Source: an uncultured Candidatus Saccharibacteria bacterium
GTDB taxonomy: Bacteria > Patescibacteriota > Minisyncoccia > Phycocordibacterales > DATDWN01
Direction of reading: 5' to 3'
DNA: 64,000 nucleotides
Assembly: GCA_964469605.1 (NCBI GenBank)
Contig: CAYXZA010000001.1
Coordinates: 6,899 to 70,898, forward strand
This document shows positions 21,457 to 30,872 of the stretch, piece by piece. The notes under the pieces are model-generated. The model was given only the letters and a program-made list of their open reading frames with translations, was not told the origin of the DNA and searched no databases. The translations under genes were made by a program, and so were the position numbers. Each line of letters starts with the position of its first letter. Positions within the stretch are counted from its first letter, which is position 1.

Positions 21457-24400
21457 TTACAAGACTTCTATAGAGAAATGAGTTTTTTTATCTTTTAAAC
21501 TAACTTCAAAAGTTAAATCACCGTCTTCAAAAACAATTTCCTTTGCACCGACTGTCTTTTTTATAATCTCAGAAAAAGATTTGATGATTTTCTGTATATC
21601 AGAAGAAGCTGAAACTTTAAGTAAGATAATATTTTTTGAAATTAGATTCATTTTCTTTCTGCCATCTTGAACCGCTCTTATAAAATCACGGCAAATACCC
21701 TCCTCTATCAGTTCATCGGTTAAGTTTGTATCAAGAACAATGTCAGCAAGTGAAGAATCCACCTCTATTTCTTTAACATTAACTTCATCTTTAATAATTT
21801 CTAGTATTTCAGTATCCAAATCTGTATTTACATATAGTTTATACAGAGGTTGTCTGACTTTGATAGAAACCTTTTCTCTTTGCATTAAAACATTTGAAAC
21901 TATCTCTCTTGCTTTTTGCATAGAAGAAAGCAGATTATCATTTACCTGCCTATTTACTTTTGGCCAATTATCCAAATGAACACTTATGGAATCACCACCA
22001 TCTCTTAATCTCAGATACAGACTCTCTGCTAAAAATGGCATAAACGGAGCCAAGACTTTTGATAATTCTTTCAAAACATATTTTGTATAAAACAAGGCAG
22101 ATTTTCTATCATCTTCATTTTCTGATTTAAACCTCTCTCTTGATCTCCTGATATACCAAACAGAAAAATCATCTATAAATGAAATTATAGGTTTTGTAGC
22201 TTTATCTATTTCATACAAATCCATAGACAAAGTCACCTCTTTTATAAGAACAGCTAATTTATCTAGTATCCAACTATCCAAAACTGATTCTTTTGGTAGA
22301 TTAGAAATATCCTCTTTATACATATCATAAAAAGAATAAATATTTTCAAGTTTTAAAACTATTTTTTTATAAACCTCATCTACCAATTTTTCTGAGAAAT
22401 TGAAATCTTCAGCTTTAACAAGTGGAGATGATAGGAGTAAATACCTTATACTATCGGCACCGTATTTATTTATAGTATCCATAAGATCTGGATAGTTTTT
22501 AAGTTTTTTAGACATCTTTCTACCATCTTCAGCAAGCACAAGACCATTTACCAAAACATTTTCATAAGGACTTTTACCAAAAAGAGCTGTTCCTAAAACT
22601 AAAAGTGTATAGAACCAACCCCTTGTCTGATCAAGTCCTTCTGCTATAAATTCTGCCGGAAACATTAAACTATCAACTTTATCAAACTCATTTTTATTCT
22701 TAAAAGGATAATTTTGTTGTGCAAAAAACATAGAACCGGATTCATACCAACAATCAAAAACATCAGGAATTCTTTTTAGTTTCTGACCTTCATCATCAAA
22801 AACTTCTACATCATCTATAAATGGCCTATGCAGATCAACTTCAAAATCTTCATTTACAGGAAGCTGACGAAAATCAACCTCTCTAACTTCTGCATTATCC
22901 CAATCACTTTTATAATCCAAATACATCTCTCTTTTAGATAAACCCTTTGAAACCAGGTCTAAAATAATAAGTGGTGCTCCGTGAGAAACTATTAGTATAT
23001 TTTTACCTTGATATTTTTTATCTATATCATATATAAACTCGGACACTCTTTTTCTAACATCATCCCAATTTTCATCTCCATCTACTTTTTTTTCAAACTT
23101 ATCTTTTTTTTGTGGAAAATTTTCCAGATATGTTGACCATAATTTACCATTAAAGGATTTTGCTTGAAGCTCAATTAACCTTTCATCAGTTTCTATTTGA
23201 CCAGAAAATCCAATTTCTTTAGATAACAACTGGGCAGTTTGCATTGTTCTCTTAAAAGGAGATGAAAAGATTACATCAATTTTTTCATTTATATTTTTAG
23301 CTGAGGATATAACATCTTGAATACCTGAATCTATTAGAGAATCTTCACCATCATAAATACACGAAATTACAGATTTTTCATTTGACTTTGATCTTCCATG
23401 CCTTACTAGAAAATAATTATTTCTCTTTGGTATATGTTTTTTTATATCTGAAATAGATTCAAAAACATATTCCTTTCCTTTTTCATCAGTCCAAACAGGA
23501 AGAGGTGCTCCCCAAAATCTAGATCTAGATATTGCCCAATCTGGAGCACCCTCTATCCAATTACCAAATCTATTTTCCCCTATTTGTTTTGGAATCCATT
23601 TAACTTTTCTGTTATTTTCAAGCATTTTCTCTTTCAAACTCTCTATCTTTACAAACCAAGAACTTGTAGCATAGTTTAAAAGTGGACTATCACATCTCCA
23701 ACAATGAGGATATGAGTGGACAATTTTTTCCTTTGCAAAAAGCAGTCCGCTATGTGCCAAATATTTTATAATCTCAATATCTGTTTTTTGATGACCATCT
23801 TTGTCATCTGATTTTGGTTTTACAAAAAAACCTTTAAAATCCAAAATCTCATCTTTAAATGTTCCGTCTGTTTTTACATGTTGAATAAAAGGCAGACTAT
23901 ATTTTTTAAGTAGAGAGTAGTCATCATTTCCAAAAGCTGGTGCAATATGAACAATACCTGTTCCATCTTCTGATGTCACAAAATCACCTTCATAAATTTT
24001 CCAACCATTTTCTCTGTTTTCTATTTTTTCATTTTCTGAATAATAATTGAAAAGTGGTTTATATCTTTTTCCTAAAACTTCATCAACTAAAACAGTTCTC
24101 AAAATTTTAAAATTTTCTTTAAATACAGCTTCAACTCTTGATTTTGCGATTATGTATTTATTTTCATCAACTCCACTAGAAACTTCAACATATTCAATAT
24201 CTTTATTTATGGCCAAAGCAACATTTCCAGGAAGTGTCCAAGGTGTTGTTGTCCAAACCAAAAGATAAGTATTTTCCAAACCTTCTAATTTAAACTTCAC
24301 ATATACAGAAATATCGGTTATATCTTTGTAACCCAGATTGACCTCAAAATTTGAAAGTGTTGTCTCGCATCTAGGACAAAGATGCATTGATTTGAATCCT

Positions 24401-24936
24401 TTATAGATAAGCCCTTTATCATAAAGATTTTTAAATGACCACCAGATACTTTCAGTATATGTCTTGTCCATTGTCCTATAATCATTTTCCATATCAACCC
24501 ATCTCCCAGTTCTAGGTATAACCTCTTTCCAAATATCAGCATATTCCAAAACAGAATTCTTTGCCTCTTTATTAAAATTACCAACTCCATAATCTAAAAT
24601 ATCTTTCTTTGTTTTAAGATTTAATTTCTTCTCTATCAAATTTTCGATCGGAAGACCGTGACAGTCCCAACCCCACCTTCTCAAAACCTTTTTGCCCTGC
24701 ATTGTTTTGTATCTAGGAATAGCATCTTTTATAGAACTAGCCAAAAGGTGTCCGTAATGTGGCTCACCTGTGGCAAATGGTGGACCATCATAAAAAACAA
24801 AACTACCACCGTCTTTTTCTAGACTTTTTTCAAAAATATTATTTTCTTTCCAAAAAGCAAAAACTGCCTCCTCCCTTTTGGCAACTTCACTTTTTTCTTT
24901 TTTATCTTTATTTGACGACTGATCCATAAAATCCAT
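21457..24936 (-). CDS. ileS: Isoleucyl-tRNA synthetase with an inserted histidine-phosphatase-like domain
   Basis: HYGH (PPFATGEPHYGHLL), a CP1 editing region and KMSKKLKN are present. Between the ...WAISRSRFWGAPLP and ...DCWYESGS segments there is an extra ~180 aa carrying LVRHGRSKSNE and IVSHGAPL motifs. Confidence 0.9.
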   Translation of the reverse strand: MDFMDQSSNKDKKEKSEVAKREEAVFAFWKENNIFEKSLEKDGGSFVFYDGPPFATGEPHYGHLLASSIKDAIPRYKTMQGKKVLRRWGWDCHGLPIENLIEKKLNLKTKKDILDYGVGNFNKEAKNSVLEYADIWKEVIPRTGRWVDMENDYRTMDKTYTESIWWSFKNLYDKGLIYKGFKSMHLCPRCETTLSNFEVNLGYKDITDISVYVKFKLEGLENTYLLVWTTTPWTLPGNVALAINKDIEYVEVSSGVDENKYIIAKSRVEAVFKENFKILRTVLVDEVLGKRYKPLFNYYSENEKIENRENGWKIYEGDFVTSEDGTGIVHIAPAFGNDDYSLLKKYSLPFIQHVKTDGTFKDEILDFKGFFVKPKSDDKDGHQKTDIEIIKYLAHSGLLFAKEKIVHSYPHCWRCDSPLLNYATSSWFVKIESLKEKMLENNRKVKWIPKQIGENRFGNWIEGAPDWAISRSRFWGAPLPVWTDEKGKEYVFESISDIKKHIPKRNNYFLVRHGRSKSNEKSVISCIYDGEDSLIDSGIQDVISSAKNINEKIDVIFSSPFKRTMQTAQLLSKEIGFSGQIETDERLIELQAKSFNGKLWSTYLENFPQKKDKFEKKVDGDENWDDVRKRVSEFIYDIDKKYQGKNILIVSHGAPLIILDLVSKGLSKREMYLDYKSDWDNAEVREVDFRQLPVNEDFEVDLHRPFIDDVEVFDDEGQKLKRIPDVFDCWYESGSMFFAQQNYPFKNKNEFDKVDSLMFPAEFIAEGLDQTRGWFYTLLVLGTALFGKSPYENVLVNGLVLAEDGRKMSKKLKNYPDLMDTINKYGADSIRYLLLSSPLVKAEDFNFSEKLVDEVYKKIVLKLENIYSFYDMYKEDISNLPKESVLDSWILDKLAVLIKEVTLSMDLYEIDKATKPIISFIDDFSVWYIRRSRERFKSENEDDRKSALFYTKYVLKELSKVLAPFMPFLAESLYLRLRDGGDSISVHLDNWPKVNRQVNDNLLSSMQKAREIVSNVLMQREKVSIKVRQPLYKLYVNTDLDTEILEIIKDEVNVKEIEVDSSLADIVLDTNLTDELIEEGICRDFIRAVQDGRKKMNLISKNIILLKVSASSDIQKIIKSFSEIIKKTVGAKEIVFEDGDLTFEVSLKDKKTHFSIEVL
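22880..23430 (-). other. Histidine-phosphatase (PGAM/RHG-fold)-like insertion domain within ileS (approximate bounds)
   Basis: Contains an RHG motif (FLVRHGRSKSN) and a second catalytic histidine motif (VSHGAP). These sit between conserved IleS catalytic-core blocks. Confidence 0.5.
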
Positions 24937-24968: not shown

Positions 24969-26165
24969 ATGTGCTATATTGAATTTAATAAAAAATTTAT
25001 GAAAAACATATCAAAAGAAGAAAAACTAAGACTTAGGACTTGGGTTGAAATAGACAGATCAGCCATCAAGCACAATGTAAATATTTATAAAAAAATTATT
25101 GGTAAAAATGTAAAACTAATTGCTGTCGTAAAATCAAATGCTTATGGACACGGACTTGTATCATTTTCAAGAGAATTAGAAAAAAACGGAATAAAATCTT
25201 TTGCAACTGACTGTATGGAGGAAGCTACCACACTAAGAGAAGCTGGCATAAAATCTGAAATACTAAATTTGGGTTTTTGTCCTTATACAGATTACCAAAA
25301 TGCTATAAAAAACAATATAACCATTACAATATCAAGTTTAGATTCTTTAAAAAGAGTTTCCAAAGTTAAAGAAAAAATAAACATACATATAAAGGTGGAT
25401 ACTGGTATGGGAAGACAAGGTTTCAAAAATGAAGAACTTGATATTGTATTAAATACACTAAAAAAACATAAAAATATAAATGTATTAGGTGTTTACAGTC
25501 ACCTAGCATCAGCAGATGATTTGGAAAATGTTGCATTTACAGAAAAACAGATTGGGACACTAAACTCTTGGCACAGTAGATTTTTAGAAAATGGTTTTAA
25601 ACCAATAAAACATATCACTGCTTCTGCCGGCACAATGCTTTTTCCTCAATTTCACTTTGATGCAGTTAGGATAGGTATTGGACTTTATGGACTTCACCCA
25701 TCTGACACAACCAAAAAACTTTTTTCAAAAAAATACCCACTTAAACCTGTGCTATGTTGGAAAAGTATTTTAACTGAAATAAAAAAATTTAAAAAAGGAG
25801 ATAAAATTGGATATGATTTAACAGAGACACTGCAAAGAGATTCTAGACTAGCAATAATACCAGTTGGATACTACAACGGTTATCCAAGACTACTTTCCCT
25901 CAAAGGATTGTTTGAACTGAAAGGTAAGAAAATAAAAATCATAGGTAAAGTTTCTATGAATATGATTATTGTTGATATAACCGATGTAAAAAAAGCTAAA
26001 TTGTTTGACGAAGTTATTATTGCTGGTGGCAAAAGCCATATTGCAGATATATATCAAATAGCACAAGATACTGAAAGTATAGTATATGAAGTATCAACAA
26101 AAATAAATCCAATTATAAAAAGATATTACAGTATCAACCCTGACATAAAACGAGTAGTGGTTTGA
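24969..26165 (+). CDS. alr: Alanine racemase
   Basis: PLP-lysine motif AVVKSNAYGHG, and the overall fold III PLP-enzyme layout. Confidence 0.9.
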   Translation: MCYIEFNKKFMKNISKEEKLRLRTWVEIDRSAIKHNVNIYKKIIGKNVKLIAVVKSNAYGHGLVSFSRELEKNGIKSFATDCMEEATTLREAGIKSEILNLGFCPYTDYQNAIKNNITITISSLDSLKRVSKVKEKINIHIKVDTGMGRQGFKNEELDIVLNTLKKHKNINVLGVYSHLASADDLENVAFTEKQIGTLNSWHSRFLENGFKPIKHITASAGTMLFPQFHFDAVRIGIGLYGLHPSDTTKKLFSKKYPLKPVLCWKSILTEIKKFKKGDKIGYDLTETLQRDSRLAIIPVGYYNGYPRLLSLKGLFELKGKKIKIIGKVSMNMIIVDITDVKKAKLFDEVIIAGGKSHIADIYQIAQDTESIVYEVSTKINPIIKRYYSINPDIKRVVV

Positions 26166-26267
26166 AAATCTAATACAATAATGAAGCCTCGCTCCCGATG
26201 AATCGGAAACGAGGCCGAGGACCAAGGTCAAAGTGTCTAAAAAATCACAGTGACCTAGCCCAAAGAA

Positions 26268-26909
26268 CTAACTTTCGAGATAAGCCGAAAAATGCCAGCT
26301 ATGCCACCGATCGCTGAGCCGACGCACGCGCCAGTGCCACTGACCTCCAACCGAGCACAAGTACAGAACGCAACGCCCGCCATCCGGATTACGGAGAATG
26401 GTTCCGAAGAAATCGAGATATTTGATACCTCGCTCCCTTCGGAGATTCTCCAAAACGGAGGCGCTGCCTCTGGACTTGTAGTCCACAAGGAGAGCCTCTC
26501 CGACCAGGGCGTCGAGGACGATCTTGCCTGACTTCTTAAGCTGGGCAAACTTTTCCTCTCCGGTGATACTCGTCTCGCCGGGATGGAGAAAGGTCTCGAA
26601 ATTCGCCCAATCCACCTCTTTCAAAGCAAGACTGTCGAGGTCTTGCTCCATATCCCCATAGAGACCATCACCATTGGCTGGACCCCTCCAAATGGTCCAG
26701 CCGGGACCAATGAAGGTGGTTGGGTTGAACTTCTTTGTGCGGTCTATGGCGAGCACTGGGCTCACCACCCAACAAGCCTCCTTCCGGAGGAATTTTTTGA
26801 ACTCTCTGAGCCACCGCTCGCCGTCCTCCCCGGCGAGATTGACGATTAAATGATTCAGCAGTCCGGAGTTAAACTCACGGAGTGCTTTGAAGAGCATGGT
26901 GTTGTCCAT
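26268..26909 (-). CDS. GC-rich island paralog 1 (unknown function; Trp-rich C-terminal domain)
   Basis: Its GC-rich codon usage contrasts with the host. It shares about 140 aa of C-terminal homology with the 27208-28074 product (FNPTTFIGPGWTIW...GEEKF..LKKSGKI..DA...FFGTILRNPDGGRCVLYL...W.WRV). Confidence 0.55.
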   Translation of the reverse strand: MDNTMLFKALREFNSGLLNHLIVNLAGEDGERWLREFKKFLRKEACWVVSPVLAIDRTKKFNPTTFIGPGWTIWRGPANGDGLYGDMEQDLDSLALKEVDWANFETFLHPGETSITGEEKFAQLKKSGKIVLDALVGEALLVDYKSRGSASVLENLRRERGIKYLDFFGTILRNPDGGRCVLYLCSVGGQWHWRVRRLSDRWHSWHFSAYLES

Positions 26910-26955
26910 GGTCTTTTTCCTTTCTGCCAGAGGACCATCTTTAATCTTGTTGGAT

Positions 26956-27002
26956 GGTCATAGCCAAAAAATGCCTACTTTAAGCATTTTTTGGCTATGA
27001 CC
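26956..27002 (-). promoter_or_regulatory. Conserved 5'UTR hairpin (19 bp stem) between promoter and start codon of paralog 1
   Basis: ggtcatagccaaaaaatgc-ttaaagta-gcattttttggctatgacc is a perfect inverted repeat. A nearly identical copy is at 29036-29082. Confidence 0.5.
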
Positions 27003-27064
27003 AAGTCTAAAATTAAAATTTGTCCTACTTGGGGGGTTTGGGGGTTGCCCGAATTTCTCATCCA

Positions 27065-27093
27065 ATTATATCATATTTAGATATAAAAGTCAA
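27065..27093 (-). promoter_or_regulatory. Near-consensus sigma70 promoter driving paralog 1
   Basis: Read on the minus strand: TTGACT, a 17 nt spacer, TATAAT. Confidence 0.55.
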
Positions 27094-27121
27094 TAAATAA
27101 ATTTGTAGGATTAAGAAAAGA

Positions 27122-27151
27122 CCCTGCATCTCTGTACAAGCAGATGCAGGG
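27122..27151 (-). terminator. Hairpin terminator after paralog 2
   Basis: The 10 bp stem ccctgcatct/agatgcaggg is followed, on the minus strand, by a tcttttctt T-rich tract. Confidence 0.5.
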
Positions 27152-27207
27152 CCCAAAGGGCTAAGGTCAAAGGGTTCAAGAAGGTCCCAGTGGCTTAGTC
27201 CAAAGAA

Positions 27208-28074
27208 CTAAATTGCGAGAACGGCGGATGGCTGTCGAATGTCCCAGTTGCCCATTAACCAGGACACGTTCCAGCGCCACCGACCCCTGCTCCAAAACAA
27301 GCACAGAACGTAACGGCCACCGACCGAGTCCCGAAGGACTGTGCCGTCAAAGAAGATGTAACGGGTGTTCCAGTTGACCCTCTCCTTCCACGACTCGGGA
27401 ATGAGGTGCTGGTTCTCCCAGAGCGTGAGGAAGATGTCGGCGTCCAAGCGAATGTAGTCCGATTCTTTGAGACGCCTGAGCTTCTCCTCGCCATTCACGT
27501 ACGTCTCGCCGTCCTTCAGCATCGTCACGTGCTGAACCTTCGTCAGGTCCAGTTCGGTGAGTGCGATGGATCGAGTGTCTGTCTCGTCCACCCAGATGTT
27601 CCAACCTTGGCCGATTAATAATGAATTGGGATTGAAGCGACCATGGTTGATTGGGATGATCTTCGACTCGCCGACGATGATCTTTCCACCGTTCTTGAGG
27701 AACGCCGTGAACTGTCTGCCAGCTTCCTTCGGGTTACGGACGATGAAGTCCTGAAGCCCCGAGTTAGCGAAGTCAATCGTTGCCCAATCAGTATTCACAG
27801 CCAGAGTGGCGATAACCTGATGGGATTGGTCAATTTGGCCGATTAATGAATTGGGATTGAAGCGACCATGGTTGATTGGGATGATCTTCGACTCGCCGAC
27901 GATGATCTTTCCACCGTTCTTGAGGAACGCCGTGAACTGTCTGCCAGCTTCCTTCGGGTTACGGACGATGAAGTCCTGAAGCCCCGAGTTAGCGAAGTCA
28001 ATCGTTGCCCAATCAGTATTCACAGCCAGAGTGGCGATAACCTGATGGGATTGGTCAATAGTGATTTGTCCCAT
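27208..28074 (-). CDS. GC-rich island paralog 2 (unknown function) containing an internal 75-aa tandem duplication
   Basis: Residues ~1-76 and ~77-152 are near-identical (IDQSHQVIATLAVNTDW...GRFNPNSL). The C-terminal domain is homologous to paralog 1 (FFDGTVLRDSVGGRYVLCLFWSRGRWRWNV). The start codon is preceded by a strong SD (caaggagatagacaATG). Confidence 0.55.
   Translation of the reverse strand: MGQITIDQSHQVIATLAVNTDWATIDFANSGLQDFIVRNPKEAGRQFTAFLKNGGKIIVGESKIIPINHGRFNPNSLIGQIDQSHQVIATLAVNTDWATIDFANSGLQDFIVRNPKEAGRQFTAFLKNGGKIIVGESKIIPINHGRFNPNSLLIGQGWNIWVDETDTRSIALTELDLTKVQHVTMLKDGETYVNGEEKLRRLKESDYIRLDADIFLTLWENQHLIPESWKERVNWNTRYIFFDGTVLRDSVGGRYVLCLFWSRGRWRWNVSWLMGNWDIRQPSAVLAI
27608..28060. 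repeat. Tandem direct duplication of about 225 bp (two copies, one 3 nt indel) inside paralog 2
   Basis: Plus-strand ORFs 27643-27846 and 27868-28119 translate identically. The DNA at 27608-27835 nearly equals 27836-28060. Confidence 0.8.
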
Positions 28075-28221
28075 TGTCTATCTCCTTGTGTGCAAGAGGG
28101 CGACTGTATGTCGCCGTAGCTGGGAAAGCCCTATATAAATTACTTTTTTGTAAGACTCTTTCAGCTATGGCGATTTTTTTGAAGATCAGATATGTTTAAG
28201 ACTTTGCAAATTTCTTATCGA

Positions 28222-28250
28222 ATTATATCATATTTAGATTAAAAAGTCAA
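28222..28250 (-). promoter_or_regulatory. Near-consensus sigma70 promoter driving paralog 2
   Basis: Read on the minus strand: TTGACT, a 17 nt spacer, TATAAT. Confidence 0.55.
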
Positions 28251-28278
28251 TAAATAAATTTGTAGGATTAAGAAAAGA

Positions 28279-28308
28279 CCCTGCATCTCTGTACAAGCAG
28301 ATGCAGGG
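28279..28308 (-). terminator. Hairpin terminator after paralog 3
   Basis: The same ccctgcatct/agatgcaggg hairpin as at 27122, followed by a T-rich tract. Confidence 0.5.
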
Positions 28309-28364
28309 CCCAAAGGGCTAAGATCAAAGGGTCCAAGAAGGTCCCAGTGACCAGAGCCAAAGTG

Positions 28365-28952
28365 CTACTTGCGACGAACGAACACGAAGCGACTGTAACC
28401 GTCCCAGAGGGTGTCCCACTTACCGTTGCCATTCAACCAACGACCATCCTCGCCGTGTACAACGTGGAACACGTTAGGATAGCCGTCCGAGTCCGAAATC
28501 GGTTTCATCCCGATGAGTAACCACTCTCCCTTCGGCTGGTCCTTGTACTGCAAACGCAGTTGAGGACCAACTTCAGAAGGACAGAGTTCCAGACCGAGTG
28601 AAATCGCTCGCTCGTAGATGTCGCCACGTGTGGCACCATCATTGAAGCCGAGCTCGGCAACGGAGACATTGACGAGGGGGAGCTCCATCTCGGTTTCGCT
28701 CGCCGTGAAGGCGGGCTTGCCGAGAATGTCGTTACCCCAATTCCCGATTTTGAAGCCCCCGTCCTTGAGTGCCTTTCGGAAATCATCGGCGATCTTCAGT
28801 CCCGTGCCAAGCTTCACCGTCTTCCAAATGGTGAACTGTGGAACCGATAGGGTCAGCTCACCCGAGAGGAAGCGGCGAACGCCGTCCATCCCACCGAGCT
28901 TGTTGACTATTGCTTCTATCTGACCAAGAGTTAATTCCCCGTATTTCATCAC
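28365..28952 (-). CDS. GC-rich island paralog 3 (unknown function)
   Basis: GC-rich. Its C-terminal ~40 aa (DGYPNVFHVVHGEDGRWLNGNGKWDTLWDGYSRF) resemble the paralog 1/2 C-terminal motif more weakly. It carries the same promoter, UTR and terminator cassette. Confidence 0.5.
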   Translation of the reverse strand: MMKYGELTLGQIEAIVNKLGGMDGVRRFLSGELTLSVPQFTIWKTVKLGTGLKIADDFRKALKDGGFKIGNWGNDILGKPAFTASETEMELPLVNVSVAELGFNDGATRGDIYERAISLGLELCPSEVGPQLRLQYKDQPKGEWLLIGMKPISDSDGYPNVFHVVHGEDGRWLNGNGKWDTLWDGYSRFVFVRRK

Positions 28953-29035
28953 TCTCTCTCCTTATCGGCTGATTGCCGATGGACTTCCCACTGCCCGTGG
29001 GTTTAGGGTTAGAGCTAGAGGACAACCACATTGGT

Positions 29036-29082
29036 AGTCATAGCCAAAAAATGCCTACTTTAAGCATTTTTTGGCTATGACC
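29036..29082 (-). promoter_or_regulatory. Conserved 5'UTR hairpin of paralog 3
   Basis: agtcatagccaaaaaatgc...gcattttttggctatgacc, a copy of the hairpin at 26956. Confidence 0.45.
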
Positions 29083-29144
29083 AAGTCTAAAATTAAAATT
29101 TGTCCTACTTGGGGGGTTTGGGGGCTTCTGAAATTTCTTATCCA

Positions 29145-29173
29145 ATTAGATCATATTTAGATTAAAAAGTCAA
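29145..29173 (-). promoter_or_regulatory. Sigma70-like promoter driving paralog 3
   Basis: Read on the minus strand: TTGACT, a 17 nt spacer, TCTAAT. Confidence 0.45.
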
Positions 29174-29192
29174 TAAATAAATTCAGAAGATT

Positions 29193-30872
29193 TTACATCT
29201 CCTCTGGAGTTTTTATACCAAGAAGCCAAAGTCCTGACTGCATAGTTTCTTTGAAAACTTCTATTAAGAAGATTTTATATGGAGAATTTTTATCATCTTT
29301 GTCTACTATTTTTTCTTTTGCATAAAAACTATTAAACTCACCTGAAAGCTCTATCAGATATGTACTTATGTATTGTGGAGCATATTTTAGTCCCGCTCTT
29401 TCTATAACAGAATAAAATCTCTCTAAAAGTTTTTCTAGTTTTGTTACTTTCCAATCTTCTGGAATCAAATCACCTGAAACCAAAGACAGATCATTTGCTT
29501 TTTTTAATATAGAATTTGCTCTGACAGCTGAATATTGTAAATAAGGACCAGAATCCCCTTCAAAAGAAAGTGATTTATTGAAATCAAAAATAATATCAGA
29601 ACCGATTGATTGTTTTAATATAGAATATTTTATAGCACCAATAGCAACCATCTGAGCAATTTCTTTTTTCTTTTCATCTGAAAACTCTCTGTCTTTCATT
29701 TTTTCTAATGTTTTTTCTTTAACCTGATTTATCATTGACTCTGCTGTTATAACATTACCAGTTCTACTAGACATCTTTCCTTCTGGGAGTTTTAACATCC
29801 CATGAGATATATGTTTTAATTTACCTTTTCTTGATGGCATAACTTCACCTATGGCAACCTCTACCACATCAAAAAAACTATCTTGCTCATTTGCTGTTAC
29901 GGTAATAGATAAATCATAATCAAAATTTTCTTTTTTTATGAAAGCAAGACCAACTTCTTTTGCTTCATAAGTTGGCAATCCGTCGCTGTTTAAAAAAACT
30001 CTGGTATGAGTTTTAGGTATAAAATTTTCACCTTTAAATATCACTGCTCCACTATCACCTTTTTCAAAAACTTTACCAATATTTTCAGATACAACTTTTT
30101 TACCAATCTCCCCTGACTGACTTTCTAAAAAATGAAAATTAAAATGACTATCTAGTTTTTTATAAATTTCTTCAAAAAACTCAAAACTTTTTTTTATACC
30201 TTCTTTGTATATTAAATTTATATAACTATCAGATTCTTCATATATTTTCTTATTAATTTCATTTATTTCACTTTTTTCCACAAGGTTTTCATAAAATATA
30301 TTTCCTACTGCATAAGCTTTTTTAAAATCATCTGTTTTTTTATTGAAAATAGCCCACACAGCTTTTGCTATATGAATACCTTTATCACCGTGATAAGTAG
30401 CAACTTGCACATCCGCTCCAAGTGTCTTAATAAGTCTTGATATTGACTCACCAATTGCATTGTTCATTAAATGTCCAATGTGAAATTCTTTAAACGGATT
30501 TGGTTGAGTATGTTCTATAAAAATCTTCTTTCCTTTCAAATTGCTCGGTAAACCCTCACCTTTTTTAGTCCTCTTTAAACAATCCCTTATATATTCTTTT
30601 GTTAAAAAGAAATTCAAAAAACCATTTGGTGCAACTTCAACTTTTTCAATTTCTTTTATTTTTTGATTATTTAATTTTTCTACAAATTCAGCGGATAAAG
30701 TCTTTAAATCCTTACCCTCTTTTTTTGCCATCATCAAAGCTACGGTGCTAGAGTAGTCACCAAAAGAAAGGTTTTGATTTGGTTCAATAGAAAAATCAGT
30801 ATCTAAACCCAAAACCTCGGCTATCCATTTTTTTATTATACTTTCTGTCATTTTATTTTCCAGATGAACCAA
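29193..30872 (-). CDS. argS: Arginyl-tRNA synthetase
   Basis: A class I HIGH motif (FHIGHLMNNAIGE) and a C-terminal DALR anticodon-binding-like region. Length 559 aa. Confidence 0.9.
   Translation of the reverse strand: MVHLENKMTESIIKKWIAEVLGLDTDFSIEPNQNLSFGDYSSTVALMMAKKEGKDLKTLSAEFVEKLNNQKIKEIEKVEVAPNGFLNFFLTKEYIRDCLKRTKKGEGLPSNLKGKKIFIEHTQPNPFKEFHIGHLMNNAIGESISRLIKTLGADVQVATYHGDKGIHIAKAVWAIFNKKTDDFKKAYAVGNIFYENLVEKSEINEINKKIYEESDSYINLIYKEGIKKSFEFFEEIYKKLDSHFNFHFLESQSGEIGKKVVSENIGKVFEKGDSGAVIFKGENFIPKTHTRVFLNSDGLPTYEAKEVGLAFIKKENFDYDLSITVTANEQDSFFDVVEVAIGEVMPSRKGKLKHISHGMLKLPEGKMSSRTGNVITAESMINQVKEKTLEKMKDREFSDEKKKEIAQMVAIGAIKYSILKQSIGSDIIFDFNKSLSFEGDSGPYLQYSAVRANSILKKANDLSLVSGDLIPEDWKVTKLEKLLERFYSVIERAGLKYAPQYISTYLIELSGEFNSFYAKEKIVDKDDKNSPYKIFLIEVFKETMQSGLWLLGIKTPEEM

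Follow-up and report, generated by a model that had tools for sequence, protein, structure and literature searches.

A tandem array of three genes of the diversity-generating retroelement target type in an uncultured Saccharibacteria genome, and the conserved module in which each is set

In a 64,000-nt stretch of the genome of an uncultured Candidatus Saccharibacteria bacterium (phylum Patescibacteria; contig CAYXZA010000001.1, positions 6,899 to 70,898), hereafter the window, a minus-strand island at positions 26185-29192 carries three genes, A, B, and C. All three are of the type targeted by diversity-generating retroelements (DGRs), and they belong to two unrelated protein families. We consider it probable that A, B, and C form a tandem array of stand-alone DGR target genes of the Patescibacteria type, each set in a conserved target module. 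The module consists, in this order, of a strong sigma-70 promoter, ~47 nt of leader, a hairpin with a 22-bp stem (HP1), a gene-specific proximal leader with the Shine-Dalgarno (SD) sequence AAGGAG, the gene, ~55 nt of CTTKG repeats, and a GC-rich hairpin with a T-run. With the hexamer GCAAGT at the end of the gene, these elements are common to the two unrelated target families. Promoter, hairpin, and SD are not peculiar to the island, being conserved across many Patescibacteria lineages. The genes are of a known kind (Patescibacteria DGR targets), whereas HP1 and the periodic 3' spacer are, as far as we checked with incomplete coverage of the literature, undescribed cis elements.

A sequence-only reading of the window had described each island gene as sitting in a repeated expression cassette of promoter, leader hairpin, gene, conserved 3' untranslated region, and terminator hairpin. 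That observation is confirmed and extended here; its interpretation was partly right, the identity of the genes as being of the DGR target type having been missed.

The island has a GC content of ~50 per cent, compared to ~29 per cent for the AT-rich window, and is flanked by the stop codon of argS (29193-30872, minus strand) on one side and by the convergent gene alr (24969-26165, plus strand) on the other. Its repeat structure is a mosaic. The promoter and leader through the hairpin are 92 per cent identical between 29037-29192 and 26957-27112, and a unit of 3' segment, hairpin, and next promoter is 91 per cent identical over 159 nt between 28209-28367 and 27052-27210. We infer that this 91-92 per cent identity arose at the shared promoter, through local duplication or through gene conversion. 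Of the conserved ~60-nt segment that was said to follow each stop codon, the similarity between the A and B copies stands and runs on into the next promoter, whereas the C copy is only partial (77-78 per cent identity over 26-45 nt). Coordinates of all features are collected in Table 1.

Two families of DGR target genes

Searches of Pfam, PHROGs, NCBIfam, and PADLOC returned no meaningful match for proteins A, B, and C, and protein A is unrelated in sequence to the other two. Protein A has >1168 homologues, all of them hypothetical proteins of Patescibacteria and typically 60-73 per cent identical to it; 25 homologues were found for protein C, and homologues of the B/C family are 40-59 per cent identical. 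The gene of one homologue (P0143) has bAvd, on the opposite strand, next downstream and an RVT_1 reverse transcriptase (RT) after it, and the last 130 nt of the gene recur 460 nt downstream with 88 per cent identity, which is the layout of a DGR. In many relatives, the variable region (VR), formed by the C-terminal ~125 nt of the gene, is copied from an adjacent template repeat (TR); in locus L003, VR and TR are 88 per cent identical.

VR/TR pairs were surveyed in 80 A-family genomic loci and 60 B/C-family metagenomic loci, the scan of the B/C metagenome contigs being made with a tighter B/C alignment. An RT lies immediately downstream of the target in 34 of the 80 A-family loci and Avd in 39. 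In 48 VR/TR pairs, among them those of the nearest relatives of A (L009) and B/C (L089 and L091), mismatches fall almost only at TR adenines (e.g. 15/15, 19/19, and 24/24). Hypervariability is limited to the C-terminus: A-family members share a scaffold with 60-73 per cent identity and vary at alternating positions within the last ~45 residues, and the B/C alignment likewise combines a conserved scaffold with a hypervariable C-terminal stretch. For both families, the predicted fold is C-type-lectin-like; the model of protein C (predicted local distance difference test score 77.2) gave weaker C-type-lectin-like matches, among them the DGR variable proteins TvpA and Mtd. Because the relatives in these families adjoin TR, Avd, and RT, and because their VRs differ from the templates almost only at TR adenines, A, B, and C are genes of the DGR variable-protein type.

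Gene B contains a perfect, in-frame tandem duplication of 225 bp (28059-27844 and 27834-27619), which repeats ~75 residues of the N-terminus. It is probably real and recent; the contigs of two other assemblies end inside it. Elsewhere, the first ~45 residues of protein C (MDNTMLFKALREF...; window 26909-26775) recur in P0022-P0024 fused to a different C-terminal domain, which suggests that modules may be shuffled among these small proteins.

The GC excess of the island is a trait of the families: target genes have a median GC content of 55 per cent against 43 per cent for their flanks and lie >5 points above the flank in 84 of 94 related loci. Across these 94 loci, target genes are ~13 GC points above the host flanks in nearly all genomes, and target GC regressed on host GC has a slope of 0.43; such an excess could be the product of frequent horizontal transfer or of some constraint within the system. 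Searches of phage, plasmid, and viral-contig collections found no related sequence. Members of the target families (in L034 also RT and Avd) occur in high-GC contigs that are not labelled Patescibacteria, namely L034, a 1.17-Mb contig labelled Bryobacterales, and L127, L128, and L133, in all cases without HP1.

A module common to both families

The 32-nt promoter block TTATTGACTTTTTAATCTAAATATGATATAAT occurs three times on the minus strand, where shuffled sequences lead one to expect none, and the earlier claim of three TTGACT-17 nt-TATAAT copies, one of them with TCTAAT, is borne out. Promoter A begins 16 nt past the argS stop codon. Among the relatives, a near-consensus promoter (TTGACA-17-T(G)nTATAAT) is situated a median of 47 nt upstream of HP1 in nearly every locus, and in some loci it is nearly identical to those of the window. 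The sequence-only reading was also correct in calling such promoters and SDs unusual for this genome. The 64 kb contain five promoter matches of at least 11/12, two of them in the island, and among the 34 window open reading frames (ORFs) of at least 200 aa an SD core is found upstream of the island genes only. Many of the host genes in this set have a TATAAT-like -10 box 5-10 nt before the ATG in place of an SD, which suggests that leaderless or SD-independent initiation may be the norm in this organism. As SDs are all but absent from the host genes of this genome, the target module may for that reason come with a promoter and SD of its own. Outside the island, two promoters match the sigma-70 consensus perfectly, at 12/12 (window 38735 and 8759 [-]). 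A C-rich tract, cccccaaacccccc, is present between promoter and HP1 in leaders A and C (~29122-29109 and 27042-27029, minus strand) and was not seen in the leaders of relatives.

HP1 was first spotted by eye in the 5' flanks of both protein families. In the window, an identical hairpin had been reported downstream of the first and third promoters only, inside a leader of ~150 nt. Both long hairpins are real: GGTCATAGCCAAAAAATGC with its complement is present at 29036-29082 and at 26956-27002 but at no other place in the 64 kb, the 19-nt arm being present four times, as two hairpins, all inside the island. The two copies are not identical, however, as one base differs at the foot of the stem, and the leaders measure ~190 nt in A, ~141 nt in B, and ~150 nt in C. 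Moreover, a third copy in the leader of the middle gene had been missed; it is diverged, with a long apical part, and retains the A·C mismatch of the family. The leaders fold far more stably than shuffled sequence, with z = -5.7 (A), -3.0 (B), and -6.3 (C).

An alignment of 36 HP1 sequences was compared to controls in which the partner column was slid and to shuffles. In the 22-bp stem, 92.6 per cent of cells are paired, in contrast to 37-52 per cent in the slid controls; both sides have changed in 14 of the 22 pairs, and the covariation score is 0.52 against 0.22 in the shuffles. The lower stem is also conserved in sequence (GTCATAGCCAAAAG / TTTTCTGGCTATGAC), whereas the apical part varies in length and sequence with pairing kept. 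An A·C mismatch recurs, with G-C in its place in most B/C-type leaders and A-U in the window, and G·U pairs exist on the sense strand only, at columns 24/56 in 32 and at columns 29/51 in 30 of the 36 sequences.

A covariance model built from this alignment (R1) finds exactly three significant sites in the window, one per leader. The search of relatives that the sequence-only reading had proposed recovers the hairpin family in 30 of 63 evaluable A-family leaders and 13 of 32 B/C leaders, always upstream of a target-type gene. Two further matches (L052:5433-6052 and L073:2116-2905) precede divergent A-like paralogues, seemingly without a diversified variable region. Against Rfam 15, the cassette elements of the window match no family at its gathering score, with only sub-threshold chance matches in the island (miRNA-like, and RAGATH-10 at 18 bits vs 41), and a search of the window plus seven related loci returned tRNAs only.

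A long, near-perfect palindrome that is repeated within 3 kb, and at which other assemblies break, might be a small mobile element, resembling miniature inverted-repeat transposable elements or repetitive extragenic palindromes, that landed in the leaders by chance; the end of a genome-wide mobile repeat was likewise named in the earlier reading as a possible refutation. Yet the 64 kb hold no other copies, and viral contigs have no exact match. In >60 loci of different lineages, HP1 keeps a fixed position and orientation 60-260 nt upstream of target-type genes, and scanning ~800 kb of related loci revealed none in any other place. We regard a mobile origin as very improbable.

Even less credible to us are integron-like gene cassettes with the hairpins as attC recombination sites. 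The likeness lies in the tandem arrangement of small genes and in the imperfect hairpin of each, in which one base and one unpaired position are conserved and the top varies. HP1, however, is on the wrong side of the gene for an attC site, 5' of it and inside the transcribed leader; each gene has its own promoter; the RYYYAAC/GTTRRRY core sites are absent; the window has no integrase-like ORF; and the relatives are mostly single genes beside a DGR.

We infer that HP1 would act in the mRNA, given the G·U pairs of the sense strand, the variable distance between the arms, and the site downstream of the promoter. Alternatively, HP1 could be a double-stranded DNA operator, where a dimeric transcription factor on the inverted repeat ATAGCCAAAAG...CTTTTCTGGCTAT represses the target genes. 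Such an operator would suit a location just downstream of a strong promoter and a lower stem that is conserved in sequence and not in pairing alone. It is an unlikely explanation: the distance between the half-sites ranges from 9 to >35 bp, the apical stem covaries, and the asymmetry of the G·U pairs is matched by R1 scores in related loci that are always 15-25 bits higher on the sense than on the antisense strand. As for an RNA-level role, the earlier guess of a regulatory or stability element fits the covariation and the strand asymmetry, and that of a thermosensor is without support. Sense-strand G·U pairs that are conserved, together with a stem that spans two helical turns, suggest that HP1 is probably a site for a double-stranded-RNA-binding protein or RNase III, which may set the stability or translation of the target mRNA.

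Between HP1 and the start codon of A-family genes lie two further small hairpins, P2 and P3, followed by AAGGAG. They covary as well: 82 per cent of cells are paired, compared to 29-40 per cent in slid controls, and 9 of 11 pairs have changed on both sides. RNAalifold alone recovered only part of P3; the P2/P3 structure was therefore specified and counted explicitly. In gene B, the SD AAGGAG is at 28087-28082.

At the other end of the gene, the coding sequences of both unrelated families end in GCAAGT, which the A family reads as ...CGC AAG TAG and the B/C family, in a different frame, as ...GCA AGT TAG; TRs read GCAAC where VRs read GCAAGT. At the nucleotide level, the hexamer thus marks where VR/TR homology stops. 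At its stop codon, gene A of the window has GCAAGT, gene B GCAATT, and gene C GAAAGT. Among 150 distinct flanks downstream of genes of both families, 148 show, after the stop codon, a spacer with a median length of 54 nt and then a GC hairpin with its T-run. This spacer consists of 6-7 degenerate CTTKG-containing units over ~55 nt, with peaks of base autocorrelation at lags 7, 8, and 15 (z = 18, 14, and 14), and the three window spacers match this periodic pattern. What had been noted as a 3' untranslated region and terminator hairpin is a family-wide element that follows the VR in two unrelated target families.

The repeated terminator hairpin of the sequence-only reading, CCCTGCATCT(N10)AGATGCAGGG, is found exactly twice, at 28279-28308 and 27122-27151, and gene C ends with a different one. 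The A and B hairpins have a 10-bp stem and a 10-nt loop and are followed by TCTTTTCTT, i.e. the GC-rich hairpin and T-run of an intrinsic terminator; their loop exceeds the limit of the terminator scan, which flagged the 14-pair hairpin of C, at a distance of ~20 nt from the alr stop codon. In the mechanism that we propose, the 3' hairpin and T-run would terminate the target mRNA, and GCAAGT, spacer, and hairpin together would mark the 3' edge of the VR for mutagenic retrohoming, the role of the initiation of mutagenic homing (IMH) sequence and stem-loop in the Bordetella phage element.

Two observations concern the DGR RNA of relatives. A conserved stretch of ~230 nt lies between the target terminator and the TR (L003:5690-5920, L008:6790-7030, and ~45 other loci); it contains the blocks GGYAGTAGGTGAATAYGCGGG ... 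CCAGTATCCATAC ... ATGAAGATACTTGGTATAG ... TTCAARGGG, has no Rfam match, and is presumably a structured 5' domain of the DGR RNA. A base pairing between spacer and DGR RNA, seen by eye in L003 (TTCAAAGGGCG complementary to CGCCCTTTGAA), was dropped, as L012 and L009 change the RNA block and not the spacer.

Table 1. Positions of the genes and module elements of the island in the window.
Feature	Coordinates	Strand	Description
Promoter A	29145..29176	-	-35 TTGACT 29173-29168, 17-nt spacer, -10 TCTAAT 29150-29145; 1 mismatch to TTATTGACTTTTTAATCTAAATATGATATAAT
HP1 copy A	29028..29090	-	Stem 29082-29036; 61.4 bits, E 2.6e-15
Proximal leader of gene A	28964..29001	-	Hairpins P2 (29001-28987) and P3 (28980-28964), directly before SD AAGGAG (28963-28958)
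Gene A	28365..28949	-	194 aa from ATG 28949; DGR variable-protein family, C-type-lectin-like fold; VR ~28492-28368, end ...CGC AAG TAG
3' element of A	28270..28364	-	56-nt spacer with seven degenerate 7-8-nt CTTKG repeats (28364-28309); 10-bp GC hairpin (28308-28279); T-run (28278-28270)
Promoter B	28222..28253	-	TTGACT, 17-nt spacer, TG-extended TATAAT (11/12 of sigma-70 consensus); exact TTATTGACTTTTTAATCTAAATATGATATAAT
HP1 copy B	28104..28180	-	Stem ~28173-28111; covariance model 55.2 bits, E 1.6e-13
Gene B	27208..28074	-	288 aa; second DGR variable-protein family; VR ~27335-27211
3' element of B	27113..27207	-	Periodic spacer (27207-27152), same hairpin as A (27151-27122), T-run; 91 per cent identical to the element of A
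Promoter C	27065..27096	-	TTGACT, 17-nt spacer, TG-extended TATAAT (11/12 of sigma-70 consensus); 2 mismatches to TTATTGACTTTTTAATCTAAATATGATATAAT
HP1 copy C	26948..27010	-	Stem 27003-26955; 58.9 bits
Gene C	26268..26909	-	213 aa; paralogue of B (34 per cent identity); VR ~26395-26271
3' element of C	26185..26267	-	Degenerate periodic spacer (26267-26217), different 14-pair hairpin (26216-26185)

Stand-alone targets or orphans

Several observations weigh against reading the island as an array of DGR targets. Comparison of the three VRs with the 64-kb window by blastn revealed no TR; a scan for the YxDD motif and tblastn searches with the RT and Avd of a relative revealed neither protein in it; and the conserved DGR-RNA blocks gave chance-level matches only. 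Nor is this genome one of the GTDB representatives, among which the best match reached 70 per cent. The defining TR/VR relation is therefore documented for relatives of A, B, and C. Four independent assemblies are 100 per cent identical to the window, VRs included, with no sign of ongoing diversification. The adenine signature could be sought only indirectly, with TRs from other genomes that are not independent of each other, which also qualifies the P-values: on this basis, VR_B is mismatched at 69 per cent of adenine positions against 35 per cent of others and VR_C at 71 per cent against 35 per cent, but VR_A at 37 per cent against 31 per cent (P = 0.07). HP1 is missing from about half of the family loci, and its presence is independent of TR adjacency; because of this independence, HP1 is not required for retrohoming. 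Finally, in the characterized Bordetella element the stem-loop directly follows the IMH, whereas here a spacer intervenes.

The genes could accordingly be orphaned relics, i.e. former targets on which no DGR acts now, with flanks that serve ordinary expression only (promoter, mRNA hairpin, and terminator) and a repetition that reflects recent local duplication. The lack of TR, RT, and Avd within 64 kb, the VRs that are the same in all four assemblies, the missing adenine signature of VR_A, the single-base deviation of both B and C from the GCAAGT consensus, and the high identity of the island copies all agree with such a history. On the other hand, more than half of the family members elsewhere are stand-alone and yet retain the 3' element, which points to continued selection; remote targets are recognized for DGRs (PMC8144416); and the coverage of this genome is 64 kb. 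We consider relics a possible but less likely explanation than an array of stand-alone targets.

Stand-alone targets are common in these families, as the locus has no TR in 35 of 63 A-family and 20 of 32 B/C-family cases. Remote targets are a recognized DGR arrangement, and by their own admission published surveys miss them systematically (PMC8144416). With no TR, RT, or Avd in the window, A, B, and C are thus either remote targets of a DGR located outside of it or orphans. That the repeats of the island are real is indicated by the contigs of other assemblies, which break at HP1 or inside the 225-bp duplication.

On the plus strand, GC skew is negative across the whole window, which places the island genes on the apparent leading strand. 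In a reconstituted system, leading-strand orientation is favoured for DGR editing (PMC12875486); the orientation of the island agrees with this preference, which is a matter of consistency and not evidence. Outside the island, a histidine-phosphatase domain (His_Phos_1) is inserted in the isoleucyl-tRNA synthetase gene (window 21457-24936, minus strand), to judge from the Pfam list of L005, where the gene is identical.

Known systems and significance

DGRs of Patescibacteria (Candidate Phyla Radiation) correspond to RT clade 2 of Roux et al. 2021 (PMC8144416) and to architecture B3 of Wu et al. 2018 (PMC5758913). The island resembles their targets in that its homologues (60-73 per cent identity for A, 40-59 per cent for B/C) are the target in the order target, TR, Avd (on the reverse strand), and RT, and in the adenine-only VR/TR mismatches of these homologues, the C-terminal VR, and the C-type-lectin-like fold. 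It differs from them in consisting of three tandem targets of two families, with no TR, Avd, or RT in 64 kb and no diversification detected.

The target site of the mtd gene of phage BPP-1 is made up of GC14, IMH, and a stem-loop or cruciform, and in the Bordetella phage element the GC-rich inverted repeat directly after the IMH is needed for efficient retrohoming (PMC5758913, PMC12875486). Here too, an IMH-like 3' boundary is followed by a GC-rich inverted repeat downstream of the VR 3' end, and homology ends at a short boundary (GCAA|GT in VR and GCAA|C in TR). The layout is nevertheless unlike that of BPP-1: the stem-loop of the island is ~55 nt off, the gap is filled by CTTKG repeats of 7-8 nt, and the hairpin, with its T-run, appears to resemble an intrinsic terminator. 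The periodic spacer is without known counterpart.

RNase III-processed leader hairpins are found in bacterial mRNAs such as those of rnc and pnp and the phage lambda N leader. HP1 is similar to these in its ~22-bp stem (two helical turns) within a 5' leader and in a constraint that falls on the stem and not the loop; it is unlike them in being common to unrelated genes that share only DGR targeting. Conserved RNA structures tied to retroelement loci have been described as the RT-1 to RT-19 motifs, including RT-10 of DGRs (Weinberg et al. 2017, PMC5737381), but these adjoin RT genes or the TR, whereas HP1 is located in the leader of the target gene and has no Rfam 15 match.

A more far-reaching idea, which we put forward as rather improbable, is that HP1 and the CTTKG spacer are 'address labels', by which a single machine of RT, Avd, and RNA located anywhere in the genome would recognize unlinked and unrelated genes or transcripts as its targets. 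Pentameric Avd might, for instance, dock on the repeats, and retrohoming might be tied to transcription of the target through the leader hairpin. Such labels would explain why both elements are common to two unrelated families, why half of the targets are stand-alone, and why, in foreign genomes, the modules retain expression signals and a GC content of their own.

To our knowledge, prokaryotes have no natural system of targeted protein hypermutation other than DGRs, which are particularly abundant in Patescibacteria. By what route the mutagenized cDNA reaches its target and enters it is not yet settled (PMC12875486). The conserved target module would provide a sequence signature for stand-alone targets without a nearby RT, as well as concrete cis elements that can be mutated in studies of target recognition and regulation. 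HP1, in turn, would be a new candidate cis-regulatory RNA in a phylum in which almost no gene regulation is known.

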